Below are positions 5,139 through 20,725 of a DNA stretch of 20,725 bases, piece after piece. The notes under the pieces were generated by a model. It was not told the origin of the DNA. It made no database searches and saw only the letters and a program-made list of their open reading frames with translations. The DNA lies in UHGV virus genome UHGV-1517735; one strand, given 5' to 3'. Position 1 is the stretch's first letter; every line of letters starts with the position of its first letter. The position numbers and the translations under genes were made by a program. Origin of the DNA: a virus.

Positions 5139-5157
5139 AACTTGTTACCTCGGTCTG

Positions 5158-5234: not shown

Positions 5235-5243
5235 TAGTATAGG

Positions 5244-5270: not shown

Positions 5271-5291
5271 TACTTACTGAAAAATATGATT

Positions 5292-5876: not shown

Positions 5877-5931
5877 TTTCTGGAAAATCGCCTCATATAT
5901 GAATCAGTAGATGATTCAATTTAAAGCAATA

Positions 5932-6005
5932 TTACCCAACAGGTAAATGCACCTCATAGGTAACTATCCTTGATTTTTGTTACCTTATGGGTGAATATTT
6001 ATTAT
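5932..6005. promoter_or_regulatory. OR-like operator cluster (three sites) with PR-like promoter
   Basis: TTACC-CAACA-GGTAA (5932-5946), GCACC-TCATA-GGTAA (5949-5963), TTACC-TTATG-GGTGA (5980-5994); -35 TTGTTA (5977-5982), 17-bp spacer, -10 TATTAT (6000-6005) so the third operator sits inside the promoter. Confidence 0.6.
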
Positions 6006-6030
6006 CTGAAATAAATATCAGGCAATAGCT

Positions 6031-6261
6031 ATGAGCGATAACGGACATTTCGATTTCAAAAAGCACTGGCTTGCACTTACTCCGGATGAGCGTGAAGCCT
6101 TCGCACAGGAAGCCGGAACGACGAGTCACTATATCCAGACTCACTTAACAGGTAAGCGCAAAATGCCAGGTAAAGTATTGATGAATGGGCTTTTTAAAGC
6201 CTGTAAAACAAGACAATGGCTGCGCTCAAAAGCAGAACTGGCATACTTCTTCTACTCATGA
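6031..6261 (+). CDS. Cro-like HTH regulator
   Basis: 76-aa ORF divergent from the repressor; HTH-like segment EAFAQEAGTTSHYIQTHLTGKRKMP. Confidence 0.65.
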   Translation: MSDNGHFDFKKHWLALTPDEREAFAQEAGTTSHYIQTHLTGKRKMPGKVLMNGLFKACKTRQWLRSKAELAYFFYS

Positions 6262-6282
6262 TATCCAGCTACAACCCTCTGT

Positions 6283-6307
6283 AGACCGCCACCCGGCGGT
6301 CTTTTCA
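6283..6307 (+). terminator. Rho-independent terminator after the Cro-like gene (tR1-like position)
   Basis: 8-bp stem AGACCGCC / GGCGGTCT with ACCC loop, followed by TTTCAT. Confidence 0.65.
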
Positions 6308-6316
6308 TATCTATTC

Positions 6317-6331
6317 GTACCTCAAAGGTAA
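6317..6331. promoter_or_regulatory. Operator-like palindrome GTACC-TCAAA-GGTAA (9/10)
   Basis: Immediately downstream of the post-cro terminator, upstream of the replication genes. Confidence 0.4.
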
Positions 6332-6409
6332 TAAAAAACCAAATCTGGTTGATCAAATTTTCCAATTGTGCAAAATAGCCAATATCAATAACAAAAAGGG
6401 GCGGAAAAA

Positions 6410-6622
6410 TTGAAGATAGTAACCAGAATGGAGGCCGCAAAAGCCGGGTTAAATCGCTATTTCACAGGAAAGCGGTGCCGTCACGGCCATCTCTCTGAAA
6501 GGTATGTTCTGAACGGAACATGTGTTGAATGTGCAATGAATAGCGCCAACCGCCATCGTAATGAATTTGCTTGTGCACTAAAGAGTGCAAGAGGGGAAAC
6601 CTATGGCAAGCAGCTGGATTAA
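6410..6622 (+). CDS. Hypothetical Cys/His-rich small protein (cII position); start uncertain (TTG 6410 or ATG 6428)
   Basis: 70-aa ORF; CRHGH...CVEC...C pattern; AAGGGG upstream of the TTG; overlaps the replication gene start; no similarity to lambda CII noticed. Confidence 0.45.
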   Translation: MKIVTRMEAAKAGLNRYFTGKRCRHGHLSERYVLNGTCVECAMNSANRHRNEFACALKSARGETYGKQLD

Positions 6623-7427
6623 GGTTGAAGTTATCACTCCTGATAAACCTGAAATTTTTCAGATAGCAGAAATTCTGGGTATTGATCCAGATGCTGTTCT
6701 TGGAAAGCTGGTTCGTATATGGGCATGGGCTGACCAGCAAACAATAGACGGTAACGCTGGTAGCGTTACAAAAGGAGTACTTGATAGACTCGCTTTTATT
6801 ACAGGATTTGCTGACGCCCTCATTAGCGTCGGATGGCTTGCTTATCATGACGGCAAACTAATTCTTCCAAACTTTGAGCGACATAATGGAGAATCATCGA
6901 AAAAACGTGCACTTACGAATAGAAGAGTGGCAGAGCATCGAAAACGAGTAACGCAAAAAGTAACGCCAACAGCGTTACAAAAGGAGTTACCAGAGGAAGA
7001 GGAAGATATATATAAAACCCCACACATAGCGCACGTGCGCGAGGGTGCTCCGACCAGTGAAGCGAACAGTACGCCGTTGCAGGTGGCAGAACCTGAATTT
7101 CTGGATGGCCTGAGTGAACCCATCGGGAAATTTCCGATGACAGATGGCTGGCTACCGTCGCCAGATTTTCGGCGGCGTGCTGCGCTGTGGGGAACGGCCC
7201 TGCCGGAACCGGAATTTACACCTGCTGAACTTGCTGCATTCCGGGATTACTGGATGGCTGAGGGCAAAGTGTTCACGCAGGTTCAGTGGGAACAAAAATT
7301 CGCCAGGCACGTAAATCATATCAGGGGAAAATCAAAAAATGCCGGGAAAAGCGATGAGCTTGACTGGAATAACACTGACTGGATAGAAGGGGTGTGGGAT
7401 GAAATCAACTCCAGAACTTCTCAATGA
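6603..7427 (+). CDS. Replication initiation / replisome organiser protein with C-terminal DnaT-like domain
   Basis: ATG at 6603 with RBS GAGGGG; C-terminal GKFPMTDGWLPSPDFRRRAALWGTALPEPEFTPAELAAFRDYWMAEGKVFTQVQWEQKFARH closely parallels the E. coli DnaT C-terminus; iteron-like repeats inside the gene. Confidence 0.8.
   Translation: MASSWIKVEVITPDKPEIFQIAEILGIDPDAVLGKLVRIWAWADQQTIDGNAGSVTKGVLDRLAFITGFADALISVGWLAYHDGKLILPNFERHNGESSKKRALTNRRVAEHRKRVTQKVTPTALQKELPEEEEDIYKTPHIAHVREGAPTSEANSTPLQVAEPEFLDGLSEPIGKFPMTDGWLPSPDFRRRAALWGTALPEPEFTPAELAAFRDYWMAEGKVFTQVQWEQKFARHVNHIRGKSKNAGKSDELDWNNTDWIEGVWDEINSRTSQ
6748..7040. repeat. Putative replication origin: duplicated iteron-like element inside the initiator gene
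   Basis: GTAACGC-N5-GCGTTAC-AAAAGGAGT at 6751-6780 and 6960-6990; extra GTAACGC at 6948-6954; AT-rich GATATATATAAAA and 12-bp palindrome GCGCACGTGCGC (7029-7040) follow. Confidence 0.45.
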
Positions 7428-8175
7428 GTACGATCGCTTACGTGAGCATGGTGTTGCTGTGCATGAAGAGCGGCGTGACAGCAATGGCAAAAAGGAGCAG
7501 GTTGCTAGAATTTTCAATGAACTATTTGTCCAGTTACAGGCTGCATTTCCTGCAAGCGTTTCGACCATAAGGGAGCAGAACAAACTTAATGAATTCCGTA
7601 AGCAATGGATGCTTGCGTTTCTGGAGAATGGGATCACTACAATGGAACAGGTTAACGCTGGTATGCGCCACGCCCGCGCCAGTGAATCTCCGTTCTGGCC
7701 GTCGCCAGGGCAATTCATCAAGTGGTGCAAAGACAGCAAGATGGTTCTTGGCGTCACCATTGACGATGTGATGGCGGAGTTTCACCGGTACAGCAAGGAA
7801 AAAAGTTTATATCCTGGTGGTCCCGAAAGATTCCCGTGGCGGCATCCGGTTATGTACTGGGTCGTATGTGATACCCGTCGTGCAATGTATCAGCGCCAGC
7901 TTAGCGAGAGTGAGGTTGAGAAACACGCGCGCAGGCTGCTCGATGATTGGGCGAAAAAGGTGGCTTCCGGACAGCAGATACCCGATCCGGTGATCAGCAT
8001 ACAGGCAAAGCCAGAGCCCATGAGTACACCTCCGGACACAGGGAGAGACGTTTACCATCCACCAGGGCGAAGTTTCGGGTGCATGCCTAACGCCGCCACC
8101 CTTGGGGGAATAACACCGGCGCAGTGGCTGATGGAGGAATACAGGCGGGGAAAGGCGGCAGGATTTATCAAGTAA
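7399..8175 (+). CDS. Lambda P-like replication protein (helicase loader)
   Basis: 258-aa ORF; AFPASVSTIREQNKLNEFRKQWMLAFLENGITTMEQVNAGMRHARASESPFWPSPGQFIKWCK closely matches the conserved core of lambda P as recalled. Confidence 0.88.
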   Translation: MKSTPELLNEYDRLREHGVAVHEERRDSNGKKEQVARIFNELFVQLQAAFPASVSTIREQNKLNEFRKQWMLAFLENGITTMEQVNAGMRHARASESPFWPSPGQFIKWCKDSKMVLGVTIDDVMAEFHRYSKEKSLYPGGPERFPWRHPVMYWVVCDTRRAMYQRQLSESEVEKHARRLLDDWAKKVASGQQIPDPVISIQAKPEPMSTPPDTGRDVYHPPGRSFGCMPNAATLGGITPAQWLMEEYRRGKAAGFIK

Positions 8176-8292: not shown

Positions 8293-8637
8293 ATGAGAAA
8301 ACAGATACAGGCTCTTGGTCGACTCAAAACAGGCCAGATGAACAAAACTGAATCTGCGTATTGCCAGCACCTTGAGCTGCGTAAACGTGCAGGGGAAATC
8401 GCCTGGTATCGATTCGAGGGTATCAAGCTGCGGTTAGCTGACAACACGTTCTATACGCCAGATTTCGCTGTGATGCTCGCCACCGGAGAGATGGAACTGC
8501 ACGAAGTGAAAGGTTTCTGGACCGACGACGCCAGGGTGAAAACCAAAGTCGCCGCAGATCAGTATCCGTTCCGAATCATCGGGGTAACGGTTAAACCAAA
8601 GAAAGCAGGTGGTGGCTGGAACATCGAAGAGTTCTGA
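8293..8637 (+). CDS. DUF1064-like phage protein (putative PD-(D/E)XK-fold nuclease/resolvase)
   Basis: 114-aa ORF; YTPDFAV...ELHEVKG...KTKVAADQYP pattern as recalled for DUF1064; RBS GAGGT. Confidence 0.7.
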   Translation: MRKQIQALGRLKTGQMNKTESAYCQHLELRKRAGEIAWYRFEGIKLRLADNTFYTPDFAVMLATGEMELHEVKGFWTDDARVKTKVAADQYPFRIIGVTVKPKKAGGGWNIEEF

Positions 8638-8698
8638 ATCGACGATCTTTTTAGTTATCAATGTAATCAATAAGTTATGTGGATAAGCGAGGGTAAAG

Positions 8699-9262
8699 AT
8701 GGAAAGTAATATCAAAGGGTTAGTTGCCGCCGGGCATGAGATGGCTTCGGAACTGAAAGCAGAATGTGGTGCCGTTGATATGCGCAGTGTGGCAAAGCTG
8801 ATCAGCGATTTGGCAACGCAACTGGAAGTGCAACTGGTGCGTGCTAATGCGCTGGCCGAAGACCACCAGAGAGCGACTGAGTCAATTAAGCAGGCTGATT
8901 CGGCTGTTAAGTTGGCGCACGAGAAGTTTTCGGTGCTGGCGGCGGAGAATGCGGGGCTGAAGTCTGGCGCAATGGACGAAATCAAGGTTATCAACCGTGG
9001 AGGGCAGGCATATTGCGTAAAAGATGGAGTGCAAGTTAATCCCATGTATGCAAGAGGGTGGAATGACTATCGCGCAAAGTCTCTGCAATCAGACACCCCG
9101 GCCACCGACGCATTCCTTGCTGAAATTGAACGCAAAGCAATCCGCAAGTTCATTAACAGCATTGAACACATCCTGCGTGACAAGTTGTCACCGTATGACA
9201 CCGAAGAGATGCTTGAAGCTATGCGTATTTTTCTGGAAGAACAGGGAGGTGAGCAAAAATGA
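8699..9262 (+). CDS. Hypothetical protein (187 aa), first gene of accessory operon
   Basis: RBS GCGAGGG before ATG 8699; coiled-coil-like N-terminal half; no recognisable domain. Confidence 0.7.
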   Translation: MESNIKGLVAAGHEMASELKAECGAVDMRSVAKLISDLATQLEVQLVRANALAEDHQRATESIKQADSAVKLAHEKFSVLAAENAGLKSGAMDEIKVINRGGQAYCVKDGVQVNPMYARGWNDYRAKSLQSDTPATDAFLAEIERKAIRKFINSIEHILRDKLSPYDTEEMLEAMRIFLEEQGGEQK

Positions 9263-9564
9263 CGATCACAAAACAACGGGTAGAAGAAATCATATCCCGC
9301 ATTGAAATGTATGGGCATGGCGCAGGGTATACCGCCGAAGAGGTTTATGACCTGGCTGTACTGGCGCTGAATTTATCAAATATCGCAAACCTGAAGCGAT
9401 ACGAGCTTGATATGGGTGGTTGTGACTCGTGCGGTCAGGATTGTGGCGCTGACATGACTGAAGATTCTGATGGCGATTATGTCCTGTTTGATGACGTAGT
9501 TAAGTTGTTTGAGTTTGATACATTCGAAAGCCCAGCAAAGGAGGCAACCAGTGAGCGAAATTAA
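9259..9564 (+). CDS. Hypothetical acidic protein (101 aa) with CDSCGQDC motif
   Basis: ATG overlaps upstream stop (ATGA); no recognisable domain. Confidence 0.6.
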   Translation: MTITKQRVEEIISRIEMYGHGAGYTAEEVYDLAVLALNLSNIANLKRYELDMGGCDSCGQDCGADMTEDSDGDYVLFDDVVKLFEFDTFESPAKEATSERN

Positions 9565-10249
9565 TTACCAGGCACTGCGTGAGGCGGCGGAACGTGCAAT
9601 TCCGGCAATGGAACGCCTGTTAATGTTGCTAGTTGATGATGCTCTGATAAGTGAACAGGAACTTAAAGATTACGGTGTGGATATTGATGCGCTCAACGCC
9701 TTCAAATTTCTGGCCGGACCAGAAACCGTGCTGGCGCTTCTGGATGAACGGGAAAGAAACCAGCAATACATCAAACGCCGCGACCAGGAGAACGAGGAGA
9801 TTGCGCTAACGGTAGGGAAACTGCGTGTTGAGCTTGAAGCAGCAAAATCAAAACTCAACGAGCAGCGTGAATATTACGAGGGAGTAATCGCGGATGGAAG
9901 TAAGCGTATTGCTGAACTGGAGAAAAGCGAAGAGCAACTCATCAATGAGCGTGACCATGCTGAGTCTGCTTTAGATGATATGTACTTTGCAGCAACCGGT
10001 AACAGGCCGGAGTGGAGCAACTGGTTCGGCTTTTCAGATGCTGTCGATGCCGTGGTTGACAGAATTGCTGATTTAGAAGCTAAACAGTCATCGCCAGTAG
10101 TGCCGGAAGGACTGGTTAAAGCAGTGCGCTTCTATGAGCAGGTTAAGCGTGAAAATCCGCCAGTCGAAACCGGAGCATGGAAAGACGCTGTTGACTGGGT
10201 GCTCAAAGAGGCCTGCCAGGTTGTAAACATTGGTACCAAAGGAGATTGA
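9551..10249 (+). CDS. Hypothetical coiled-coil protein (232 aa)
   Basis: GTG at 9551 preceded by AAGGAGG; long heptad-like central region; C-terminal PVVPE module shared with the next gene. Confidence 0.6.
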   Translation: MSEINYQALREAAERAIPAMERLLMLLVDDALISEQELKDYGVDIDALNAFKFLAGPETVLALLDERERNQQYIKRRDQENEEIALTVGKLRVELEAAKSKLNEQREYYEGVIADGSKRIAELEKSEEQLINERDHAESALDDMYFAATGNRPEWSNWFGFSDAVDAVVDRIADLEAKQSSPVVPEGLVKAVRFYEQVKRENPPVETGAWKDAVDWVLKEACQVVNIGTKGD

Positions 10250-10250
10250 T

Positions 10251-10631
10251 ATGAGCACTTTTACCGACAAAGAACTGATTAAAGAAATCAAAGAGCGCAT
10301 AGGCAGTCTGGACGTGCGAGACGATATTGAGCGCCGTGCTTATGAAATTGCTCTGGCATCACTGGAAGCAGAGCCGGTGGCGTGGCTTCATTCAGACAAT
10401 GGCTTAGGTATTCCGGCAATAACGAGGAGTAAAAACATTGCTGACAGTTGGTTATCAAAGGGTTGGTATGTTCAGCCGCTATATATAGCCAAGCCAGTGC
10501 CAGTAGTACCGGAAGAAAAACCAATGCCGAACCCTCTTAGCATGTACGCGGTTGATGCTGTTGCCGCTATTGCAGAGGTGAGAGGCTGGAACGCCTGCCG
10601 TGCCGTCATGCTTCAGGGAGATAAATCATGA
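10251..10631 (+). CDS. Hypothetical protein (126 aa), shares C-terminal PVVPE module with upstream gene
   Basis: ATG 10251 preceded by AAGGAG; AKPVPVVPEE parallels AKQSSPVVPEG in the upstream protein. Confidence 0.65.
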   Translation: MSTFTDKELIKEIKERIGSLDVRDDIERRAYEIALASLEAEPVAWLHSDNGLGIPAITRSKNIADSWLSKGWYVQPLYIAKPVPVVPEEKPMPNPLSMYAVDAVAAIAEVRGWNACRAVMLQGDKS

Positions 10632-11245
10632 TTAATCGTACCAAGCTGGAGCACATCCTCGAATATGCCAGACAGCAGAGGCGCTTTGGTCAGCATTGCA
10701 AAATTCCGCCAGGAGATATGGTTGAAATCGTGGAAATGGCCATGCGTAAGGCTGGCAACCCTCATGTAACCCCGGCTCGCCTGCCTGGTGGTTTCACCAT
10801 TGAGGATGCGAAGGCGTTACATGAAGACCTGGTACGCAGCCACATAAGCCAGGCTTTAAGTGGCGAAAATATGAAAAAGAACGATCGCGATGCTGATTTG
10901 CGCTGGATTCATGGCGTAATAGTTCAGGCAGCGTGGTTTGTAAAAGCATCACTGGAGCAAAATGCGCTATCGGGCAACTCTCCGGTAACTCCGGATGGTT
11001 GGGTTATAGTGCCGAAGAAACTAACCGCTGAGAACGGCGCTAAGGGTGTGCTATCCGGTGAATTTTCAGAAACTACGTTTATAAGCTGCCCGGAATGCTT
11101 TGGCGATGATGATTGCGATACCTGTGACGGGAGCGGACGAATTGAAATTAAAGTACCAGTCACGTGGACGACCATAAAATCCATCTGGGATAAAGGTATT
11201 GCGCATTTTGCAGCAAAACCGCCGCAGGAGGTTAACCGTGGCTAA
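10628..11245 (+). CDS. Hypothetical protein with DnaJ-type zinc-finger motif (205 aa)
   Basis: CPECFGDDDCDTCDGSG fits the CxxCxG...CxxCxGxG pattern of DnaJ cysteine-rich domains; start overlaps upstream stop. Confidence 0.7.
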   Translation: MINRTKLEHILEYARQQRRFGQHCKIPPGDMVEIVEMAMRKAGNPHVTPARLPGGFTIEDAKALHEDLVRSHISQALSGENMKKNDRDADLRWIHGVIVQAAWFVKASLEQNALSGNSPVTPDGWVIVPKKLTAENGAKGVLSGEFSETTFISCPECFGDDDCDTCDGSGRIEIKVPVTWTTIKSIWDKGIAHFAAKPPQEVNRG

Positions 11246-11519
11246 CCTGCAACTTGCCGTCAAAGGTGAATACTTCGATGCCATGATTCGCGGGGAGAAA
11301 ACGGAAGAGTATCGCCTGTGTAATGACTACTGGAAAAAGCGCCTCGTTAACCGTAAGCATGACCGCCTGATTATCACAAAGGGATATCCGAAGCGCGACG
11401 ATTCCAGCCGCAGAATAGACGTCCCGTATGAAGGGTATGAAATCAAGACAATCACACATCCGCACTTCGGCGATAAACCGGTAAAGGTGTTCGCGATAAA
11501 GGTAAATATTGATGGCTAA
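11238..11519 (+). CDS. ASCH-domain-like protein (93 aa)
   Basis: GTG at 11238 preceded by AGGAGG; LQLAVKGEYFDAMIRGEKTEEYR resembles the ASCH N-terminal strand-turn motif. Confidence 0.6.
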   Translation: MANLQLAVKGEYFDAMIRGEKTEEYRLCNDYWKKRLVNRKHDRLIITKGYPKRDDSSRRIDVPYEGYEIKTITHPHFGDKPVKVFAIKVNIDG

Positions 11520-11850
11520 ATCAGCAGCAGAGCGCAAAGCCGCTCAGAGAGCCAGACAAGCTGCATCTGGTGTGCGTAAACTGGAGATTGTGCTTGATGC
11601 TCAGGAAATTGAAATGCTGGAGCGTAACTGTGCCACGCGTCGCCCCGGGCGTGCGCCTTACGAATTTGGTGAGTATATAGCGTTACTGATCCGCCAGGAT
11701 GATGCACGCGTGCGCGGGCGTATAAAATCGATCAGCAGAAAACGTTGCGGTAAGTGCGGAGAGAGAGTTCCAGTTAATTCATGCCCGTGTAATGGTGACT
11801 CGCAATGCTGGGTGACTAAAGGCTGGCATGAAACGAAATTAATAGTGTGA
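11512..11850 (+). CDS. Cys-rich zinc-finger protein (112 aa), candidate late-gene regulator
   Basis: Basic N-terminal segment; C-terminal CGKCG...CPCNGDSQC; last gene before the terminator and operators upstream of terminase. Confidence 0.6.
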   Translation: MAKSAAERKAAQRARQAASGVRKLEIVLDAQEIEMLERNCATRRPGRAPYEFGEYIALLIRQDDARVRGRIKSISRKRCGKCGERVPVNSCPCNGDSQCWVTKGWHETKLIV

Positions 11851-11967: not shown

Positions 11968-12564
11968 ATGATGCCTGCTGAACCTAAAACCTATAAACGC
12001 AAATCAACGCAATTTAAGCCACTAACAGCAATGCAGGAGGCTTATTGCCAGTCATACATCAAAACGCCTGAAAACCAGACTCAGGCAGCGATTAATGCAG
12101 GATTCTCCCCAAATACAGCGGCAGTTAAAGCCAGTGTCATGATGCGCGATGAACGCATTCAAAAACGGATTGCCGAGTTGATGGAGGAGCGCAACAAACG
12201 AATGCGCGTCAGTGCTGATTACGTTCTCATGCGCCTGGTGGAGATCGACCAGATGGACGTGATCGACATCCTCAACGACGATGGGAGCCTTAAGCCAATC
12301 CGCGAGTGGCCGAAAATCTGGCGCACTACGCTTAGTGGCTTTGATCTGTCATCGACCATCATGAACATGAACGAGGATTCGATAGAGACAATCCTCAAAA
12401 AAATTAAATGGCCTGACAAGGTGAAGAACCTCGAACTGATTGGTAAGCACGTCGACGTCAACGCATTCAAAGAACGCCTGGATGTTAATGTGAATGTGAC
12501 AATTGCTGATCGCATAGCAGCAGCCAGGAAGCGACTCAAAGAACGTCAGGATGGCAATCAGTGA
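11968..12564 (+). CDS. Terminase small subunit (start uncertain; upstream in-frame ATGs rejected because they span the terminator)
   Basis: HTH-like segment TQAAINAGFSPNTAAVKASVMMRDERIQKRI typical of small terminase subunits; directly upstream of and overlapping the large subunit. Confidence 0.7.
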   Translation: MMPAEPKTYKRKSTQFKPLTAMQEAYCQSYIKTPENQTQAAINAGFSPNTAAVKASVMMRDERIQKRIAELMEERNKRMRVSADYVLMRLVEIDQMDVIDILNDDGSLKPIREWPKIWRTTLSGFDLSSTIMNMNEDSIETILKKIKWPDKVKNLELIGKHVDVNAFKERLDVNVNVTIADRIAAARKRLKERQDGNQ

Positions 12565-14036
12565 CAGATGCAGCGTTATCTCCTGAAGAGCAGTTGATCG
12601 AGGATATTGCAGGGTTCACTCACGATCCGCTTGGCTATGCCCTCTATGCGTTCCCGTGGGGGGAAGAGGGGACTGAACTGGCACATGCTACCGGCCCACG
12701 TCAGTGGCAGGCCGATGCGTTCCGAGAGATACGTGATCACCTGCAGAATCCAGAGACGCGCTATCAGCCGCTTATGCTGGCACGCGCTTCTGGTCACGGT
12801 ATTGGTAAATCCGCATTCATCTCAATGCTGATCAACTGGGGCATGTCCACTTGCGAGGATTGTAAGGTCGTGGTGACCGCCAACACCGACAACCAGCTAC
12901 GAACGAAGACCTGGCCGGAAATTATCAAGTGGTCGAACCTTGCTATCACGAAAGACTGGTTTACCTGTACTGCTACCGCGATGTACAGCAATGACCCAGG
13001 GCACGACAAGCGGTGGCGGGCTGACGCAATACCCTGGTCTGAGCACAACACTGAGGCATTCGCCGGACTACACAACGAGCGCAAACGCATCATCGTGGTA
13101 TTCGATGAAGCGTCGAACATTGCGGATTTGGTGTGGGAAGTTGCCGAGGGTGCGCTAACGGACGAAGACACTGAGATTATCTGGGTGGCATTCGGAAACC
13201 CGACGCGTAATACCGGACGTTTCCGCGAATGTTTCCGCAAATATAAACACCGCTGGAAAACTGCGCAGATTGACAGCCGGACGGTGGAAGGCACTAACAA
13301 ACAGCAGTTGCAGAAATGGGTTGATGACTACGGGGAAGACAGCGACTTCGTTAAAATCCGTGTGCGCGGCATATTCCCGGATGCATCTGAATTGCAGTTT
13401 ATCCCTACCGGACTTACTGACGAGGCAATGAAACGGGTGGTCACCGCTGCGCAGGTTGCACATGCTCCGGTGATAATCGGCGTTGACCCGGCATACTCAG
13501 GCGTTGATGACGCGGTGATATACCTGCGGCAGGGGCTGCACAGTAAGGTGCTATGGACTGGTAACAAGACCACCGACGATCTGATTATGGCGAAGCGTAT
13601 CGCTGACTTTGAAGACCAGTACCAGGCTGACGCGGTGTTCATCGACTTCGGTTACGGTACCGGTCTGAAGTCAATCGGTGACGGTTGGGGGCGTACATGG
13701 CAACTTGTTCCGTTCGGTGGCGCGTCTACTGATCCGCAGATGCTTAACAAGCGTGGGGAGATGTTCAACTCATGCAAGACATGGCTGAGGCTGGGCGGCA
13801 TGCTGGATGACCAGGAAACAGCGGACGACCTGTCGGCGGCAGAGTACAAAGTTCGCGTGGACGGTAAAATCGTTATCGAACCGAAGGAAGATATCAAGGA
13901 GCGGCTTGGGCGTTCGCCGGGTAAAGGCGATGCGCTACTGCTGACGTTTGCGTTCCCTGTGTCTAAGCGTCTGCGAATTCCCGGGCAGCAGAACCAGCAA
14001 GGCAAGGCCATCACAGATTACGATCCCTATGCTTAA
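12561..14036 (+). CDS. Terminase large subunit
   Basis: 491-aa ORF, GTG start overlapping upstream stop; Walker A ARASGHGIGKSAF, Walker B-like IIVVFDEASNI, C-terminal nuclease-like IGVDPAYSG..D region. Confidence 0.92.
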   Translation: MTDAALSPEEQLIEDIAGFTHDPLGYALYAFPWGEEGTELAHATGPRQWQADAFREIRDHLQNPETRYQPLMLARASGHGIGKSAFISMLINWGMSTCEDCKVVVTANTDNQLRTKTWPEIIKWSNLAITKDWFTCTATAMYSNDPGHDKRWRADAIPWSEHNTEAFAGLHNERKRIIVVFDEASNIADLVWEVAEGALTDEDTEIIWVAFGNPTRNTGRFRECFRKYKHRWKTAQIDSRTVEGTNKQQLQKWVDDYGEDSDFVKIRVRGIFPDASELQFIPTGLTDEAMKRVVTAAQVAHAPVIIGVDPAYSGVDDAVIYLRQGLHSKVLWTGNKTTDDLIMAKRIADFEDQYQADAVFIDFGYGTGLKSIGDGWGRTWQLVPFGGASTDPQMLNKRGEMFNSCKTWLRLGGMLDDQETADDLSAAEYKVRVDGKIVIEPKEDIKERLGRSPGKGDALLLTFAFPVSKRLRIPGQQNQQGKAITDYDPYA

Positions 14037-14077
14037 TCCGCTTGAGGGGATAATGTCGTTGATATCCTCTGATGAGG

Positions 14078-14106
14078 ATAAAACAAAGCCAGCTCATCGG
14101 CTGGCT
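14078..14106 (-). terminator. Rho-independent terminator downstream of the minus-strand cargo ORF
   Basis: AGCCAGC / GCTGGCT stem with 6-nt loop, followed on the minus strand by TTTGTTTTAT. Confidence 0.5.
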
Positions 14107-14109
14107 GTT

Positions 14110-14123
14110 TGTGACATGTCACA
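14110..14123. repeat. 14-bp palindrome TGTGACATGTCACA (copy 2 of GTGACATGTCAC)
   Basis: Identical 12-bp core to 11847-11858; lies between the cargo ORF stop and its terminator. Confidence 0.5.
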
Positions 14124-14126
14124 GCG

Positions 14127-14546
14127 TTACTTAATGGCATCAAATCCAGCGTTGATGGCTTCCGCAATATTGATGGCACTTGTTTTATCGAATTGCCTAT
14201 TCTGAATAAGCGCCGCATGCAGGCATTGTAACTTCATGTTGTATAAGTGTTCGCTCATGTAATCATTATCACTTTTTGTTTTAGCGCAAACAGAGCGAGA
14301 AATATCAAACACATCGCCTTTTTCCATTTCAGAACGTTGTGCTGTTATCCAGTCATGGAACGTAACGCTAGTACCATGGTCTTCGCTAAGAGTTAACCCG
14401 GCCAGTCCCTCACTCTGAATTACTTCGTAATGCATTTCATTACCAGCAAAAACGCCATAAAAAATGCAGTCTTCAGCCTGAACGATACGAGAATATTTTA
14501 ATGGCCATTCATTTAGATACTTAGCCAACATATCAATTGTCTTCAT
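14127..14546 (-). CDS. Hypothetical cargo/moron protein (139 aa), opposite strand to flanking late genes
   Basis: ORF with RBS AAGGTGA; AT-rich codon usage unlike neighbours; own terminator; no domain recognised, no predicted TM segment. Confidence 0.7.
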   Translation of the reverse strand: MKTIDMLAKYLNEWPLKYSRIVQAEDCIFYGVFAGNEMHYEVIQSEGLAGLTLSEDHGTSVTFHDWITAQRSEMEKGDVFDISRSVCAKTKSDNDYMSEHLYNMKLQCLHAALIQNRQFDKTSAINIAEAINAGFDAIK

Positions 14547-14552
14547 GATCTC

Positions 14553-14580
14553 ACCTTAAAAAAATGCCCGGCGAACCGGG
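14553..14580 (-). terminator. Terminator-like hairpin immediately upstream of the cargo ORF RBS
   Basis: GCCCGG / CCGGGC stem with TTCG-type loop followed on the minus strand by ATTTTTTT, then AAGGTGAGATC-ATG. Confidence 0.55.
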
Positions 14581-14657
14581 CGAACTGGAAGCAATGAGTT
14601 ATGCCTTCCGTGGTTGTACTGGTTTACAGCATGAAGTCATCGCAATGGCGTCCTGCT

Positions 14658-14701
14658 GTAAAAAGGGCGGTGATAGTTCTTCAAGGGAAACCATCACCGC
14701 C
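14658..14701 (-). terminator. Possible terminator hairpin downstream of the tRNA
   Basis: 9-bp stem GGCGGTGAT / ATCACCGCC with 18-nt loop, followed on the minus strand by CTTTTTA. Confidence 0.35.
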
Positions 14702-14744
14702 AAGCCCCTGGAACTTCTGGCATCACGGTCCTTAGGCGTGATTC

Positions 14745-14821
14745 TGGCGTGGCATGCAGGATTCGAACCTGCGACCAACCGCTTAGAAGGCGGTTGCTCT
14801 GTCCAACTGAGCTAATGCCAC
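14745..14821 (-). tRNA. tRNA-Arg, anticodon UCU (argU-like, phage-borne)
   Basis: 77-nt cloverleaf read on the minus strand: acceptor GTGGCAT/ATGCCAC, D-stem GCTC/GAGC, anticodon stem ACCGC/GCGGT with loop CUUCUAA, T-stem GCAGG/CCTGC with TTCGAAT loop, encoded CCA. Confidence 0.92.
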
Positions 14822-15143
14822 AACGCTGAGAGCACTTAGCCTGTTAAGGCGCCACACTTTGTCGCGGCTCCATAAATGCTCTCATCGTTGTACCCTCGTC
14901 TCTTCCGAGGCGTCACACCGAATCGCCGGGATGGTGAATCCCCGTGCGCGGAATAAAACCGCTCGACTTGCACATTCCGGCTACCTGGTTCGTTTGCCCG
15001 AGCAAGGGAGGGTGCCCCTTAAACGTATCCAGACCGCTATCGGCGCATGTGCCAGACGCCGTACTGCTCAAAATAAAAGCTCACTCCACCTGTTCAATTT
15101 AACGACAAGCCAGTCAGGTTAGTAACCGGAATGAACTCTTTGG

Positions 15144-15158
15144 TTACCTGAAAGGTAA
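15144..15158. promoter_or_regulatory. Operator-like palindrome TTACC-TGAAA-GGTAA upstream of the head module
   Basis: Perfect match to the recurring palindrome; intergenic. Confidence 0.5.
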
Positions 15159-15248
15159 TAATTTGTGCGTTAAATGTCAACTACCTACGATAAATAAATC
15201 ATATGTGGTTAAATTGGTAATAATTTAATTGCGTACGGAGTCATTGAT

Positions 15249-15455
15249 ATGTGCATGGGTAGCTCACCATCAGTGCCTGCAACACCAGAAGTTCAGGCAG
15301 CACCACAGGAGCAGGATGCCGCCGTTGTTGATGCCCGCGACGAAGAAACTCGTCGCCGTCGCGCTGCTGCTGGTCGTAGTTCTACGCTGCTTACCGGTTC
15401 TCAGGGCGACACATCAACCGCTAATACCAGCGGTAAAACGCTGCTTGGTCAGTAA
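15249..15455 (+). CDS. Small Ala/Gln/Arg-rich protein (68 aa), possibly a virion internal protein
   Basis: RBS CGGAG; begins MCMGSSPS; located directly upstream of the portal gene; loose resemblance from memory to small podovirus internal proteins. Confidence 0.5.
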   Translation: MCMGSSPSVPATPEVQAAPQEQDAAVVDARDEETRRRRAAAGRSSTLLTGSQGDTSTANTSGKTLLGQ

Positions 15456-15469
15456 CCGGAGTCATTGAA

Positions 15470-17149
15470 ATGGCGGAAACAACTAAAGAGCGATTGAACA
15501 AACAGTTCGCACAACTTGAAAGCGAGCGTCAGTCGTTCGAGCCGCACTGGCGCGAGTTGAGTGATTACATCAACCCGCGTGGTTCCCGCTTTCTGACTTC
15601 TGAGGTCAACCGTAACGATCGACGCAATACACGCATTATTGATTCGACCGGGACTATGGCGGCGCGCACTCTCGCCAGCGGCATGATGTCAGGCATCACA
15701 AGCCCCGCGCGTCCGTGGTTTCGCCTGGCTACGCCAGATCCTGAAATGATGGATTATGGCCCTGTTAAGTTGTGGCTTGAGGCGGTGCAGAACCGCATGA
15801 ACGATATGTTCAATAAGTCGAATCTCTATCAGTCGCTGCCGCAGTTATACGGAAGCCTCGGCACATACAGCACTGGCGCAATGGCGGTGCTGGAGGATGA
15901 CGAGGACATCATTCGTACAATGCCATTCCCGATAGGAAGTTACTACCTGGCTAACTCACCTCGTGGCAGTGTGGACACCTGTTTTCGCAAGTTCTCTATG
16001 ACTGTTCGTCAGCTTGTTCAGGAGTTTGGACTAAATAACGTCAGCGAATCCGTAAAAAGCATGTGGGAAAGCGGCACCTACGAGAGGTGGATTGAAGTGA
16101 TGCATTCGGTTTACCCGAACATTGACCGCGATACATCGAAGCTGGATAGCAAGAACAAGCCATTCAAATCGGTTTATTACGAGGTTGGTGGCGATAACGA
16201 CAAGTTGTTGCGTGAGTCCGGATTCGATGAGTTTCCAATTATGGCTCCGCGCTGGGAAGTTAACGGCGAAGATGTTTATGGATCATCATGCCCGGGTATG
16301 CTGGCGCTTGGACCTGTTAAGGCATTGCAGCTTCTCCAGAAGCGCAAGTCGCAGTTGATTGATAAAGCCACCAATCCGCCGATGGTTGCTCCGACTTCCC
16401 TCAAGAATCAGCGCGCCTCCCTTCTTCCTGGCGACATCACGTATATCGATCAGATTACTGGTCAGGATGGTTTCAGGCCTGCTTATCTGGTTAACCCCAG
16501 TACAGCAGATCTGGTAGCAGACATTCAGGACACTCGTCAAATCATTAACAGCGCCTACTTTGTCGATCTGTTCATGATGTTGCAGAACATCAATACCCGC
16601 TCGATGCCTGTTGAAGCGGTGATTGAAATGAAAGAAGAAAAACTTCTGATGTTGGGTCCGGTTCTGGAGCGTCTGAACGACGAATGTCTTAATCCTCTCA
16701 TTGACCGCGCTTTCTCGATGATGGTGCGTAAAAACATGCTGCCGCCACCGCCTGACGCGATGGAAGGTATGCCCCTGAAGGTCGAATACATTTCCGTCAT
16801 GGCTCAGGCGCAGAAGTCTATCGGCCTGTCCAGTCTGGCATCCACGGTCAACTTCATTGGTCAACTTGCGCAAGCGAAACCAGAAGCTCTCGACAAACTC
16901 AACGTTGATCAGGCGATTGATGCATTTGCTGATATGTCCGGTGTGTCTCCAACCGTCATTGTTCCGCAGGAACAGGTTGAGCAGGCTCGCCAGCAACGGG
17001 CACAGCAGCAACAGCAGCAACAAATGATGGCGATGGGGATGGCAGCGGCACAGGGTGCCAAGACGCTAAGCGAAGCTAAAACTTCGGATCCGAGTGTTTT
17101 GTCAGCTATGGCGAATGCAGTTAGTGGTCAGGGGGGGCAATCACAATGA
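15470..17149 (+). CDS. Portal / head-to-tail connector protein
   Basis: 559-aa ORF in the terminase-portal-scaffold-capsid order; Gln/Ala/Met-rich C-terminal tail (QQRAQQQQQQQMMAMGMAAAQG) reminiscent of podovirus connector proteins. Confidence 0.8.
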   Translation: MAETTKERLNKQFAQLESERQSFEPHWRELSDYINPRGSRFLTSEVNRNDRRNTRIIDSTGTMAARTLASGMMSGITSPARPWFRLATPDPEMMDYGPVKLWLEAVQNRMNDMFNKSNLYQSLPQLYGSLGTYSTGAMAVLEDDEDIIRTMPFPIGSYYLANSPRGSVDTCFRKFSMTVRQLVQEFGLNNVSESVKSMWESGTYERWIEVMHSVYPNIDRDTSKLDSKNKPFKSVYYEVGGDNDKLLRESGFDEFPIMAPRWEVNGEDVYGSSCPGMLALGPVKALQLLQKRKSQLIDKATNPPMVAPTSLKNQRASLLPGDITYIDQITGQDGFRPAYLVNPSTADLVADIQDTRQIINSAYFVDLFMMLQNINTRSMPVEAVIEMKEEKLLMLGPVLERLNDECLNPLIDRAFSMMVRKNMLPPPPDAMEGMPLKVEYISVMAQAQKSIGLSSLASTVNFIGQLAQAKPEALDKLNVDQAIDAFADMSGVSPTVIVPQEQVEQARQQRAQQQQQQQMMAMGMAAAQGAKTLSEAKTSDPSVLSAMANAVSGQGGQSQ

Positions 17150-17442
17150 CAGATTACGAAGATGATCAACTGAAAGAAGAAAGCGCCCGTAAGCAACGTG
17201 ACATGGCACAGCGTGAAATTGATGACATTCGCTTTGTCATGAGCAGTGAACAGGGGCGTCGCGTTGTCTGGTCGGTGCTGGAGAAAGGCCGTGTGTTTTC
17301 CGCTATCTCACCGATGGACGCTATGGCAATGGCATTTAATGAGGGGCAACGCAATCTGGCGCTGGAACTGTTTCAGCGCGTTATGGCGCATTGCCCTGAA
17401 CAGTATTTGAAGATGGCCAAAGAGGCCAGTGAACAGGAGTGA
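17146..17442 (+). CDS. Hypothetical head-module protein (98 aa)
   Basis: ATG overlaps portal stop (ATGA); between portal and scaffold. Confidence 0.6.
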   Translation: MTDYEDDQLKEESARKQRDMAQREIDDIRFVMSSEQGRRVVWSVLEKGRVFSAISPMDAMAMAFNEGQRNLALELFQRVMAHCPEQYLKMAKEASEQE

Positions 17443-17444
17443 TC

Positions 17445-18140
17445 ATGAGTTTATTTGAGCGTTTGCTGTATCGCCGTCTTTGCAATGAGCAACCAGTCGA
17501 TGGTGGAGCAGCTCCGGCTGCGTCAGAACCGTCAGCGCCTGCAGGTGATAACCCTGCTCCAGTTGGTGATCCATCACAACAGGAAGGTGATAAGCCACAA
17601 CCTGTTGCTGATGGCGATAAACCTGCTGATGACAAAAAGCCTGAAAACGATAAGCAGGATGAAAAAAAGGACGGCGATAAACCAGAGGGTGCGCCTGAGA
17701 AGTACGAGTTTCAGGCTGCCGAAGGCGTAGAGCTGGATACAGAAGCGTTGAAGGAATTCGAGCCGGTGGCGCGAGAACTTAACCTGACCAACGAGCAAGC
17801 GCAAAAGCTGGTTGATGCTTATCCGAAGATTCTGGCAGGTGTTCAGCAGCGCCAGGCAGAAGCCTGGCAGAAAACGACCGAGCAGTGGGCTGCTGATGTA
17901 AAAGCCGACAAAGAAATCGGTGGCGACAAGTTGATTTCTAACCTTAGCGCCGCACAGCGTGCGCTTGACCAGTTCGGGACACCTGAACTCAAAGAATATC
18001 TGAACACCACCGGGCTGGGTAATCACCCTGACCTGGTCAAAACGTTCGTGAAAATCGGAAAGGCGATGTCTGAAGATGGCATGGTCACCGGTGGTAATGA
18101 AGGCCAGCGTAGTGCGGCCGAAGTGCTCTATGGCAAATAA
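17445..18140 (+). CDS. Putative scaffolding protein
   Basis: RBS AGGAG 5 nt before ATG 17445; disordered Pro/Ala/Asp/Lys-rich N-terminal half and helical C-terminal half; directly upstream of the capsid gene. Confidence 0.6.
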   Translation: MSLFERLLYRRLCNEQPVDGGAAPAASEPSAPAGDNPAPVGDPSQQEGDKPQPVADGDKPADDKKPENDKQDEKKDGDKPEGAPEKYEFQAAEGVELDTEALKEFEPVARELNLTNEQAQKLVDAYPKILAGVQQRQAEAWQKTTEQWAADVKADKEIGGDKLISNLSAAQRALDQFGTPELKEYLNTTGLGNHPDLVKTFVKIGKAMSEDGMVTGGNEGQRSAAEVLYGK

Positions 18141-18154
18141 GAGAGGAAATAACA

Positions 18155-19141
18155 ATGGCTGTTAAAGGCTTAACTGCGCTAACGCTGGCTGACTGGGGTA
18201 AGCGCGTCGATCCAAACGGGAAAGTCGATAAGATTATCGAGCTTCTCGGTCAAACTAACCCGATCCTTCAGGATATGCCTTTTGTCGAAGGGAACCTTCC
18301 TACCGGACACCGAACCACCATTCGTTCTGGTTTACCTTCTGCTACCTGGCGTTTGTTGAACTATGGCGTACAACCAAGCAAATCAACCACAGTGCAGGTC
18401 ACCGATCCCGTTGGCATGTTGGAAACCTATGCTGAAGTCGATAAGTCACTGGCTGATCTGAACGGCAATACCGCCGAATTCCGCCTGTCTGAAGACCGAG
18501 CATTTATTGAAGCGATGAATCAGCAGATGGCGCAGACGCTGTTTTATGGTGATTCCAGCGTTAACCCTCAGCAGTTTATGGGACTGTCCTCCCGCTATTC
18601 CAGCCTGTCTGCGGGTAATGCTCAGAACATCATTGATGCTGGTGGCACGGGTACAGATAACACCTCAATCTGGTTAGTAGTGTGGGGCGAAAACACCGTG
18701 CATGGCATCTTCCCGAAAGGGCAGAAGGCTGGCATTCAGATGGAAGATAAAGGCCAGGTGACACTGGAAGATGCTAATGGCGGCAAGTACGAAGGCTATC
18801 GCACCCATTACAAATGGGACAACGGACTTGCTCTGCGTGACTGGCGTTATGTTGTTCGCATTGCAAACATCGATGTCAGCAATCTTTCAGAACCTTCCTC
18901 TGCCGCAAATATTGCGAAGTTGATGGTTAAAGCACTGCATCGCATTCCAAACCGTGGCATGGGCCGCCCGGTGTTCTACATGAACCGCACTGTAGGCCAG
19001 GCTCTTGATCTGCAGTCTCTGGAGAAAACATCTCTGGCTATCAGCGTAAAAGAGACTGAAGGCGAGTGGTGGACTTCATTCCGTGGTGTACCAATCCGTG
19101 AAACTGATGCGCTTCTGGAAACAGAAGCCCGCGTGGTGTAA
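18155..19141 (+). CDS. Major capsid protein
   Basis: 328-aa ORF with RBS GAGAGGA; follows the scaffold gene; followed by an intercistronic hairpin; call based on position and size, no specific motif recognised. Confidence 0.7.
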   Translation: MAVKGLTALTLADWGKRVDPNGKVDKIIELLGQTNPILQDMPFVEGNLPTGHRTTIRSGLPSATWRLLNYGVQPSKSTTVQVTDPVGMLETYAEVDKSLADLNGNTAEFRLSEDRAFIEAMNQQMAQTLFYGDSSVNPQQFMGLSSRYSSLSAGNAQNIIDAGGTGTDNTSIWLVVWGENTVHGIFPKGQKAGIQMEDKGQVTLEDANGGKYEGYRTHYKWDNGLALRDWRYVVRIANIDVSNLSEPSSAANIAKLMVKALHRIPNRGMGRPVFYMNRTVGQALDLQSLEKTSLAISVKETEGEWWTSFRGVPIRETDALLETEARVV

Positions 19142-19157
19142 CGCCTGTTATTAACCT

Positions 19158-19177
19158 GTGGGTCGTAACAGACCCAC
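19158..19177 (+). promoter_or_regulatory. Intercistronic stem-loop after the capsid gene (no U-tract)
   Basis: GTGGGTC / GACCCAC stem with 6-nt loop between the capsid stop and the next RBS. Confidence 0.4.
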
Positions 19178-19192
19178 TAATGGAGAAAGAAG

Positions 19193-19630
19193 ATGATCAC
19201 CGACAAACTGTTGATGTTCTCCGAAGCACAGGCGGTAACTGATACCGCGGCTTCTACTGACGTAATCGATCTCGGCCCAATTGATGGAAACCGTCGCGAT
19301 ATCGGCGTGGGTTACCCGCTTGAGTTTTGGGCGCTGGTTAACGAAGCCGCCACGGCAAGTGGTGAGGCAACTGTAAACATCCAGTTGCAGACGAGTGAGA
19401 ATAACAGCTCTTGGACCACTATTTATGATAGTGGCGCACTGGCAAAGGCCACCCTGACAGCAGGTAAACGAGTTGTTTCTGCAAAGGTGCCTGCCGGTGT
19501 TCAGCGATATTTGCGTGTTAACTACTCCGTCGCAACTGGCCCACTAACGGCCGGCAAATTCACTGCGGGTATCAGTCTGGATGTTGATGCCAATACACCG
19601 TACCCGATCCGCTCAAAAATAACTGGTTAA
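19193..19630 (+). CDS. Hypothetical head protein (145 aa), possible capsid decoration/accessory protein
   Basis: RBS GGAGAAAG; Thr/Ser/Gly/Ala/Val-rich composition suggestive of a beta-rich surface protein; immediately after the capsid gene. Confidence 0.6.
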   Translation: MITDKLLMFSEAQAVTDTAASTDVIDLGPIDGNRRDIGVGYPLEFWALVNEAATASGEATVNIQLQTSENNSSWTTIYDSGALAKATLTAGKRVVSAKVPAGVQRYLRVNYSVATGPLTAGKFTAGISLDVDANTPYPIRSKITG

Positions 19631-19640
19631 GGTGATATCG

Positions 19641-19976
19641 ATGTCTGGTGAGAAACCAAGATACCGCGTTCTGCGCCTCTCTCATATCCATAACACACTG
19701 TGGACGGAGGGAGCAGAAATCGAATACGAAGGTGAGCCTGGTAGCGCACTGGAACCTGTTAACGATGCAGCCAGACAGGCAAAAGCAAAAGTTGCAGGAA
19801 AGGTGTCAATGGCAGCAACCAGCACCAAAATCATCAACGATGTGTCAGATGATGGTGAACTGGATAAGCTCCGTGAAGAGTACGAATTGCTCTTTAACGA
19901 GAAGCCACACCATAACGCCAAAGCAGAAACGCTCCGCGAGAAGATCGCAGATAAGCGTAAAGAACTGGGCGTGTAA
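19641..19976 (+). CDS. Hypothetical head-module protein (111 aa)
   Basis: ATG 19641 preceded by AAGGTGA; followed by a terminator-like hairpin. Confidence 0.55.
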   Translation: MSGEKPRYRVLRLSHIHNTLWTEGAEIEYEGEPGSALEPVNDAARQAKAKVAGKVSMAATSTKIINDVSDDGELDKLREEYELLFNEKPHHNAKAETLREKIADKRKELGV

Positions 19977-19993
19977 GCCTCGCGAATCAGACA

Positions 19994-20015
19994 AGGGGCT
20001 TCGGCCCCTTTATTG
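19994..20015 (+). terminator. Terminator-like hairpin with weak U-tract
   Basis: AGGGGC / GCCCCT stem with TTCG loop, followed by TTATTG. Confidence 0.45.
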
Positions 20016-20026
20016 CAGGAGTGTAT

Positions 20027-20350
20027 ATGGAACTCGTAAACCTCAAAACCGGCACTGACAGCTACCAGGATGAGAGCGGAGAAACCAGAACTCGCGATGA
20101 ATACCCGTGGGGGCTGTGCATCACTCTTAATAACGACACATTGAATAAGCTGAAGGCGCAACCTCAGGGCGTCGGAACGGAAGTGATGATAACTGCAAAG
20201 GCTGTTATTCGAGGCCTGTCTGCCAGAGAAACTGACGATGGCGTTAATCGCAGCGCCGATCTGCAGATCACTGATATGGCGATCGCTCCTGTTTCCGGGG
20301 ATGTAGAAAAATCAGCGGCTGAAACTCTGTACGGTAACGGAGGTGAGTGA
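20027..20350 (+). CDS. Hypothetical structural protein (107 aa)
   Basis: RBS AGGAG 5 nt before ATG 20027; stop overlaps next start (TGATG). Confidence 0.55.
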   Translation: MELVNLKTGTDSYQDESGETRTRDEYPWGLCITLNNDTLNKLKAQPQGVGTEVMITAKAVIRGLSARETDDGVNRSADLQITDMAIAPVSGDVEKSAAETLYGNGGE

Positions 20351-20725
20351 TGGCCTCTGTAGTAGAGATCTGTAATCGTGCGCTGTCCAATATTGGCAAC
20401 AGCCGCAGCATTAACAGCCTGACGGAAGCCAGCAAGGAAGCGGGGGAATGTTCGCTGCACTTTGAGGCCTGCCGTGATGCTGTGCTTTCTGATTTTGACT
20501 GGAACTTTGCTACCAAACGCGTGGCGCTTGCAGATACGAGCAATCCACCGCCTGACTGGGAATATGCGTACCAGTACCCGTCAGATTGTCTGCGCATTAC
20601 TGAAATTATGCTTCCTGGTGTACGCAATCCAACAGCAGCAATGCGCGTTCAGTACGAAGTTGGTGCAGACACCAACGGAACAGGAAAGTTGATCTACACA
20701 GACCAGCCTCAGGCATGGCTCAAGT
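20350..20725 (+). CDS. Putative head-to-tail adaptor / tail tubular protein A-like (5' part; runs off window end)
   Basis: Hand-translated open frame from ATG 20350 with no stop before 20725: MASVVEICNRALSNIGNSRSINSLTEASKEAGE...; N-terminus resembles podovirus gp11-type adaptors from memory. Confidence 0.5.
   Translation, partial: MASVVEICNRALSNIGNSRSINSLTEASKEAGECSLHFEACRDAVLSDFDWNFATKRVALADTSNPPPDWEYAYQYPSDCLRITEIMLPGVRNPTAAMRVQYEVGADTNGTGKLIYTDQPQAWLK

Follow-up and report, generated by a model that had tools for sequence, protein, structure and literature searches.

A phiV10-type head and neck gene block in the UHGV virus genome UHGV-1517735 and its place among the epsilon15-like temperate podoviruses

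The temperate podoviruses phiV10, epsilon15 and vB_EcoP_ZX5 (ZX5) are classified in the genus Uetakevirus, and the genome architecture considered here has already been published for epsilon15 and phiV10. ZX5 is described as short-tailed by electron microscopy (PMC9782041), Hardies et al. tied epsilon15 gp12 and the internal proteins to the T7 set (PMC4819975), and for epsilon15 gp11 an HHpred match to T7 tail tubular protein A is mentioned in the RefSeq record. Here we analyzed a stretch of 20,725 nucleotides (nt) from the virus genome UHGV-1517735, referred to below in its entirety as the window, with a focus on positions 15249-20725. We conclude with high confidence that this block is a morphogenesis operon for the head and neck of a Uetakevirus of the phiV10 type, within the epsilon15 group. 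The element belongs to a phage species group that is already known and is new in its variant of the accessory genes. The finding thus re-describes the known genome architecture of epsilon15/phiV10-type temperate podoviruses and in itself matters little. The sole lead worth following is a C-terminal peptide common to two of the head proteins, which may be new and could help to place epsilon15 gp10 in the virion.

By Megablast, phiV10 and the O157 typing phages 9 and 10 matched 100% of positions 15249-20725 at 98.4% nucleotide identity, followed by TL-2011b, ZX5, PAS61 and HEMP4 at 98.1-98.2% (98.1% for ZX5), Enterobacter phage Tyrion at 83%, and Salmonella and Klebsiella relatives at approximately 77%. 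Correspondence was found well outside the head genes: phiV10 (93-98% nucleotide identity over most of 1-20725, with identical gene order throughout), TL-2011b and ZX5 are collinear with the window from end to end. Position 1 of TL-2011b aligns to window position 2, and the window therefore starts at the genome end that carries the integrase. By these alignments it corresponds to the left half, integrase first, of a phiV10-type phage or prophage; similarity to Uetakevirus members, in nucleotide identity and in collinearity, was accordingly judged on half a genome. Among 5,426 complete Escherichia coli genomes, 240 have a match spanning at least 80% of the window, so that phages of the epsilon15/phiV10 type are present as prophages in approximately 4% of them. 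The window is seen outside its context and many E. coli genomes have partial matches only, which might suggest that the block is a decayed, nonfunctional prophage remnant instead of a working morphogenesis module. We consider this very unlikely, as none of the nine head genes is disrupted, their products are 96-100% identical in amino acid (aa) sequence to those of plaque-forming phiV10, and gene overlaps and spacing are kept.

The initial annotation, made by a model from the DNA and its open reading frames (ORFs), had likened the structural genes to those of short-tailed phages, naming a small internal protein-like ORF, a portal with a Gln/Ala/Met-rich tail, a scaffold, a capsid protein, and an N-terminus resembling tail tubular protein A. 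All of the ORFs named exist on the plus strand (68 aa, 559 aa, 233/231 aa, 328 aa, and one starting at 20350), and four genes that were omitted can be added: Bbp19-like, Bbp16-type cement, gp9-like and gp10-like (Table 1). The portal assignment is firm, with a Pfam PF12236 score of 623.8 bits against a cut-off of 27 over profile positions 2-488 of 489; T7 gp8 scores 379.4 bits against the same family, and among solved chains the portal of Carin-1 comes closest (8ck0_A, E-value (E) 5e-179). Its tail is as described, with residues 497-559 composed of 25% Gln, 17.5% Ala and 8% Met (51% for the three combined, versus 17% elsewhere in the protein). T7 gp8 has a similarly Gln/Met/Ala-rich C-terminus, and BLASTP aligned the two tails without reaching significance. 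The portal gene, at its stop codon, and the Bbp19-like ORF that follows overlap by 4 nt.

The capsid gene was also correctly named. By sequence, its product is a capsid protein of the epsilon15 gp7/BPP-1 Bbp17 type, with an HK97 fold lacking the delta domain: it scores 412 bits against the NCBIfam equivalog NF045672 (MCP_gp7_epsi_15; cut-off 75), and among PDB sequences it matches BPP-1 (3j4u_A, E 4e-128, 430 bits), Carin-1 (8cjz_Y, E 5e-87) and epsilon15 (3j40_A, E 3e-85, 289 bits). The score against BPP-1 is higher than that against epsilon15. Downstream, the 145-aa protein matches the BPP-1 cementing protein (3j4u_H, E 4e-27) and the Carin-1 decoration protein (8cjz_B, E 6e-22). In addition to this cement gene of the Bbp16 type, the window has a gene of the epsilon15 gp10 type. 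For the latter, a 2022 re-analysis by Hryc and Baker concluded that the 111-aa epsilon15 gp10 had been misassigned to the outer "staple" decoration density, which is fitted by the 130-aa gp8, a Bbp16 homologue (PMC9207676); the labels of PDB 3j40 chain N and Pfam PF21628 are therefore doubtful for the gp10-like protein.

The last gene is cut by the end of the window, and its 125-aa fragment is 100% identical to the N-terminus of the 201-aa protein P0123. An AlphaFold2 model of P0123, built with 20 homologues (predicted local distance difference test score, pLDDT, 86.5), was compared with the PDB by Foldseek, and the top 29 matches were all adaptor or neck chains of short-tailed phages, including the Carin-1 connector (8ck1_E, E 1e-16, template modeling (TM) score 0.85), the LME-1 adaptor (E 5e-10), T7 gp11 (7box_M, E 2.4e-6, TM 0.57-0.60) and KP32 tail tubular protein A (5mu4, E 8.5e-6). 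As modeled, the protein has the T7 gp11/tail tubular protein A fold. The resemblance to tail tubular protein A proposed initially thus holds for fold and role and not for sequence family: neither the 125-aa fragment nor the 201-aa TL-2011b orthologue has a Pfam match to PF17212 (Tube), BLASTP found nothing against T7 gp11, and hhalign gave E 0.56. By analogy with its LME-1 homologue (9efk_T, 12 chains), which is described as dodecameric (PMC12407071), the adaptor would form a dodecameric ring between portal and nozzle. In relatives that are 98% identical, the product of the next gene (823 aa) matches the tail nozzle of Carin-1 (8ck1_A, E 4.5e-218) and is followed by internal virion proteins, one of them matching Pfam T7_gp14, and then a tailspike; no tube, sheath or tape-measure genes are annotated downstream in these relatives. 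Taken together, the portal in the T7 gp8 Pfam family, the predicted adaptor fold, and the nozzle and T7_gp14-type genes of relatives agree with a short-tailed type, and the portal and capsid matched no siphovirus or myovirus families, the downstream part again being judged from relatives.

Several observations weigh against assigning the block to a phiV10-type morphogenesis operon with T7-like parts. An exact copy of the window was not found, the best phage record covering 89% and the best E. coli genome 91%, which marks the element as a new mosaic variant of accessory cassettes. As the adaptor gene is itself truncated by the end of the window, tail genes have to be taken from relatives. Pairwise BLASTP of the portal, scaffold-like protein, adaptor and nozzle with T7 gp8, gp9, gp11 and gp12 gave nothing significant, the divergence being too great, and family and fold comparisons served in its place. 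The 231-aa protein between portal and capsid genes matches no solved or Pfam scaffold family above threshold.

With these genes in place, assembly may be pictured as follows. Using the terminase encoded upstream, DNA would be packaged through a T7-type dodecameric portal; the 231-aa protein, acidic and helical, would act as scaffold and nucleate a T=7 shell of uncleaved HK97-fold capsid protein; the Bbp16-type jellyroll protein would cement this shell from outside; and the adaptor with its T7 gp11 fold would close the portal and carry the nozzle and tailspikes encoded just past the window.

The scaffold step has a rival reading, as databases call the 231-aa protein something else: PHROG 458 is labeled "protease", NCBI uses "peptidase", and the record for epsilon15 gp6 notes that it is "similar to S. 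Typhimurium LT2 putative endoprotease". Were this a prohead maturation protease, the phage would have no separate scaffold, and a GNHPE motif with a near-invariant His, together with two invariant Asp residues in the family, could be read in favor of the label. However, the label goes back to similarity with another unverified annotation, and no peptidase family, the prohead maturation types (S49/ClpP, S77, S78, S80 and herpesvirus-like) included, was matched in Pfam or NCBIfam by the window protein or by 40 diverse homologues (35-67% identity). In the family alignment there is no invariant Ser, and the single conserved His (His194) is replaced by Asn in at least 3 of the 40 homologues. The AlphaFold2 model (pLDDT 46) shows no globular fold, with approximately 85 disordered residues followed by helices. 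Furthermore, the capsid protein and cement protein of BPP-1 are uncleaved in virions (PMC3863775), and a capsid protein without a delta domain needs a separate scaffold. We therefore consider a protease unlikely and a scaffold probable, as the initial annotation had proposed, on the basis of the absent protease signatures, the low-confidence model, the acidic composition (isoelectric point 4.6), and a gene position between portal and capsid genes like that of T7 gp9. The widespread "protease/peptidase" label carried by this gene is unsupported in these tests and is probably a propagated mis-annotation of a scaffold.

Matches to described scaffolds stayed below threshold. Three of the 40 homologues match the T7 scaffold family PF05396 at E of 0.01 or above, below the threshold, and the window protein does not match it; the scaffold alignment against T7 gp9 gave hhalign E 0.44, with nothing significant by BLASTP. 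With only one sequence on the T7 side, the hhalign comparisons for gp9 and gp11 are not informative. A profile of the 40 homologues produced chance matches only (E of 1 or above) among PDB sequences. The family itself is very large, with 13,759 cluster representatives at 50% identity (E of 0.001 or below). An alternative GTG start at 17439 would give 233 aa. The Pro/Asp/Lys/Ala-rich low-complexity N-terminal region (17500-17700) differs in length among close relatives, with a 20-residue duplication in P0001.

The scaffold-like protein and the gp10-like protein end in the same short peptide, SAAE[VT]LYG (18111-18140 and 20312-20350, respectively), the counterpart in epsilon15 being AFYP. The full C-termini are ...RSAAEVLYGK and ...KSAAETLYGNGGE in the window, and ...DLISAFYPKK and ...LKDAFYPDGEDD in epsilon15, for the scaffold-like and gp10-like proteins respectively. 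We collected 83 sequences, comprising 80 IMG/VR loci retrieved with the scaffold alignment, the window, phiV10 and epsilon15; a gp10-like protein is also encoded in 59 of them, yielding 17 distinct peptide pairs, and small/polar-A-x-x-[LMF]-[YF]-[GPD] describes every one of the 17. Across these 17 distinct lineages the two tails co-vary, a given locus pairing VLFG with VLFD, AFYP with AFYP, or LYG with LYG. The BLOSUM62 score of same-locus pairs was 26.7, versus 21.3 +/- 1.2 for shuffled pairs; just 1 of 10,000 shuffles came up to 26.7, in a control that leaves phylogenetic relatedness in place. In the whole genome of phiV10, only these two ORFs end in the motif.

The type of tail peptide tracks the type of capsid protein. 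In the scaffold gene, nucleotide similarity to epsilon15 is lost from 36 nt ahead of the stop codon, and the peptide travels with a swapped capsid cassette. This agreement points to a shared docking site, judged from the sequences to lie most likely on the capsid protein, as would suit a scaffold that binds coat protein by its C-terminus. By analogy with the coat-binding tail of scaffolds or the cargo-loading peptide of encapsulins, the shared peptide might be a capsid-docking (targeting) peptide. It would then direct the gp10-like protein, for instance in the role of an internal head protein, to the place on the capsid protein where the scaffold binds. We offer this tentatively, as a possibility somewhat short of probable.

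The cassette in question lies within the head module and is swapped relative to epsilon15 at 18104-20339, where aa identity is 36-43%, in contrast to 81-82% for the flanking portal and adaptor. It consists of the last 12 codons of the scaffold gene and the genes for the major capsid, Bbp16-type, gp9-like and gp10-like proteins.

At the other end of the block lies the gene for the 68-aa gp3-like protein. This protein is 100% identical to phiV10 p06, and its motifs are a Met-Cys N-terminus, an RRRRAAAGRxSTLLTG core and a KTLLGQ C-terminus; in 20 aligned homologues M1, C2, the R/G/T/L residues of the core and the KTLLGQ end are invariant. The Met-Cys start, small size and position upstream of the portal recall T7 gp6.7, an ejected head protein. 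Even at E of 10 or below, no Pfam family was matched, including PF17570 (T7 gp6.7), against which T7 gp6.7 itself scores 98 bits; direct comparison with T7 gp6.7 gave hhalign E 0.018 with a probability of 2.6%, and no significant similarity by BLASTP. Calling this ORF an "internal protein" is a guess.

The initial annotation had also read the window as a mosaic in which a lambdoid control region is joined to the podovirus-like head module. In its strongest form, this would make the element a recent chimera with a junction near 15249, and some features lend themselves to such a view: a lambda P homologue is present, patches of 89-95% nucleotide identity to lambda ea22, 933W, other Shiga toxin (Stx) phages and P22-like phages occur, and cassettes at 6531-7645 and 8856-11512 differ among relatives. 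These patches are confined to approximately 8850-11520, however, and no similarity break to any relative was seen between 14558 and 20725. Similarity to phiV10, TL-2011b and ZX5 is unbroken from approximately 14550 to 20725, and there is therefore no joint at 15249. The E. coli phage phiV10 and the Salmonella phage epsilon15 have both kept the integrase-excisionase-repressor-cro set along with the terminase-portal-adaptor set, at a comparable 76-95% aa identity (the repressor itself, 42%). Since both arms are similarly diverged from epsilon15 (integrase 87%, large terminase 95%, portal 81%), the early and late arms diverged together, and their combination is ancestral to the named genus and not a local chimera. 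In addition, P is only 39% identical to lambda P, the repressor lacks the S24 domain of CI, and the initiator is DnaT-like. A recent chimera is on this evidence extremely unlikely, and the supposed lambdoid/podovirus junction near 15249 was rejected. From the sequence comparisons, the lambda-like early layout (integrase, excisionase, recombination, repressor/cro, replication, accessory genes) is ancestral in Uetakevirus.

Mosaic joints do exist elsewhere. Relative to the E. coli relatives, similarity breaks at 6531-7645 (initiator allele and start of P), at 8856-11227/11512 (Ea/nin-type accessory cassette) and at 14106-14558 (a reverse-strand ORF next to tRNA-Arg(TCT), the ORF segment being replaced in relatives). 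The joints are thus the initiator allele, the Ea/nin cassette, the tRNA/reverse-ORF insert and, across genera, the capsid-shell cassette, and not the early/late boundary.

The replication and immunity genes were described initially as lambda-like, with a P homologue, CI/Cro and RecET. Pfam matches uphold P (PF06992), RecT and a RecE-like nuclease, and not CI; the initiator carries a DnaT domain (PF17948) instead of being of the O type. The Pfam scan placed HTH_3, a helix-turn-helix (HTH) domain, at repressor residues 106-147 and a weak YdaS match at 21-61 and found no S24 peptidase domain; the phiV10 record likewise gives two HTH motifs. With two HTH domains and no S24 domain the repressor is not of the CI type, and it would be a functional analogue only of CI. 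The "lambdoid" label is, on these sequence comparisons, only partly earned. phiV10 has an identical repressor and an identical cro-like protein (100% aa identity for each), implying that the two phages share immunity. ZX5 and phiV10 (Bro-N) carry an antirepressor elsewhere in the genome, which by analogy suggests induction by antirepressor here.

Almost the same early gene set is annotated in phiV10 and epsilon15. The integrase is 98.6% identical to that of phiV10, and the initiator allele shows 46% aa identity to its phiV10 counterpart over 83 aa. RecT and the RecE-like nuclease are separate genes in the window, and a single fused RecE-RecT ORF is annotated in phiV10; RecT is 74% and RecE 98% identical to phiV10. 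No tblastn match to the window P, RecT or RecE proteins was found in the epsilon15 genome. General Pfam and PHROG scans turned up no N/Q antiterminator homologue, small ORFs in 8293-11850 having been only partly scanned, and the large terminase had no match among PDB sequences. The tRNA was the sole match in an Rfam scan of the window. A scan of 13900-15500 found no sigma-70 promoters; terminator-like hairpins in this interval lie on the minus strand and flank the reverse ORF near the tRNA.

Table 1. Features of the 20,725-nt window, with supporting matches and amino acid identity to the epsilon15 counterpart
Feature	Positions	Strand	Support	Identity to epsilon15 (% aa)
Early and lysogeny region	193-8175	both	Pfam matches; collinear with phiV10 and epsilon15	
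Integrase, P4-type	193-1443	+	Pfam	87
MT-A70 methylase	1638-2288	-	Pfam	
PerC	2281-2580	-	Pfam	
AlpA, excisionase-like	2690-2938	-	Pfam	85
RecT	2988-3869	-	PF03837	
RecE-like PDDEXK nuclease	3866-4687	-	Pfam	
Two-HTH repressor, 194 aa	5292-5876	-	HTH-family matches	42
cro-like	6031-6261	+	divergently paired with repressor	
DnaT-domain initiator	6603-7427	+	PF17948	
Lambda P homologue	7399-8175	+	PF06992, E 5e-56	
Variable accessory cassette, Ea/Ead/nin-type genes	8856-11512	+	89-95% nt patches to lambda, Stx and P22-like phages	
Small terminase; large terminase (TerL)	11971-12564; 12561-14036	+	PF03592, E 1.6e-29; phrog_51, phrog_2	95 (TerL)
Variable insert between packaging and head genes	14127-14821	-	139-aa ORF and tRNA-Arg(TCT)	
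139-aa reverse-strand ORF	14127-14546	-	phrog_4846	
tRNA-Arg(TCT)	14745-14821	-	ARAGORN; Rfam tRNA, 73 bits	
gp3-like protein, 68 aa	15249-15455	+	phrog_831, E 2e-36	88 (gp3)
Portal, T7 gp8 type, 559 aa	15470-17149	+	PF12236, E 2e-187	81
Bbp19-like protein, 98 aa	17146-17442	+	PF25181, E 2.8e-17; phrog_528	65 (gp5)
Scaffold-like protein (probable scaffold), 231 aa	17445-18140	+	phrog_458 "protease"; C-terminal peptide SAAEVLYGK	75
Major capsid protein, 328 aa	18155-19141	+	PF20911, E 5.5e-149, 495.7 bits	43
Bbp16-type cement/decoration protein, 145 aa	19193-19630	+	PF21190, E 4.9e-48	36
gp9-like protein, 111 aa	19641-19976	+	phrog_590, E 1.8e-60	40
gp10-like protein, 107 aa	20027-20350	+	PF21628, E 1.2e-51; PDB 3j40_N, E 1e-19; C-terminal peptide SAAETLYGNGGE	43
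Head-tail adaptor, first 125 of 201 aa	20350-20725	+	cut by window end; phrog_394 "tail", phrog_9239 "tail tubular protein"	82 (N-terminus)

Set beside the described systems, the window is closest to phiV10, together with TL-2011b, ZX5, PAS61 and typing phages 9 and 10, with 98% nucleotide identity across the head block; it differs from this group in the initiator allele (6531-7645), the RecT allele, the accessory cassette (8856-11227) and the reverse-strand insert (14127-14546). With epsilon15, the type member, it shares synteny over gp1-gp11 and the early region, but the capsid-shell cassette is swapped, and with a repressor only 42% identical the immunity differs from that of epsilon15. Outside these phages, BPP-1 of Bordetella provides the best score for the capsid protein (Bbp17, 430 bits) and a match for the cement protein (Bbp16), and Carin-1 of Cobetia marina provides matches for the portal (8ck0), adaptor (8ck1_E), nozzle (8ck1_A) and decoration protein; both differ in host. 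The morphogenesis genes follow the same order as in T7 (gp8 portal, gp9 scaffold, gp10 capsid, gp11 adaptor, gp12 nozzle, gp14-16 core), and the likeness extends to the portal Pfam family, its Gln/Ala/Met-rich tail, the modeled gp11 adaptor fold and the T7_gp14-family protein downstream in relatives, whereas the capsid protein belongs to another family (PF20911), the terminase genes precede those for the head, and the phage would be temperate with a host-RNA-polymerase lifestyle. With lambda it has in common the order of integrase, excisionase-like, recombination, divergent repressor-cro, replication and accessory genes, the P helicase-loader homologue (PF06992), and Ea22/EaA/Eae-type accessory genes in the patches of 89-95% nucleotide identity; in place of their lambda counterparts it has a two-HTH repressor without the S24 autoprotease domain, a DnaT-domain initiator instead of O, and recombination genes of the RecT/RecE type instead of lambda Red.

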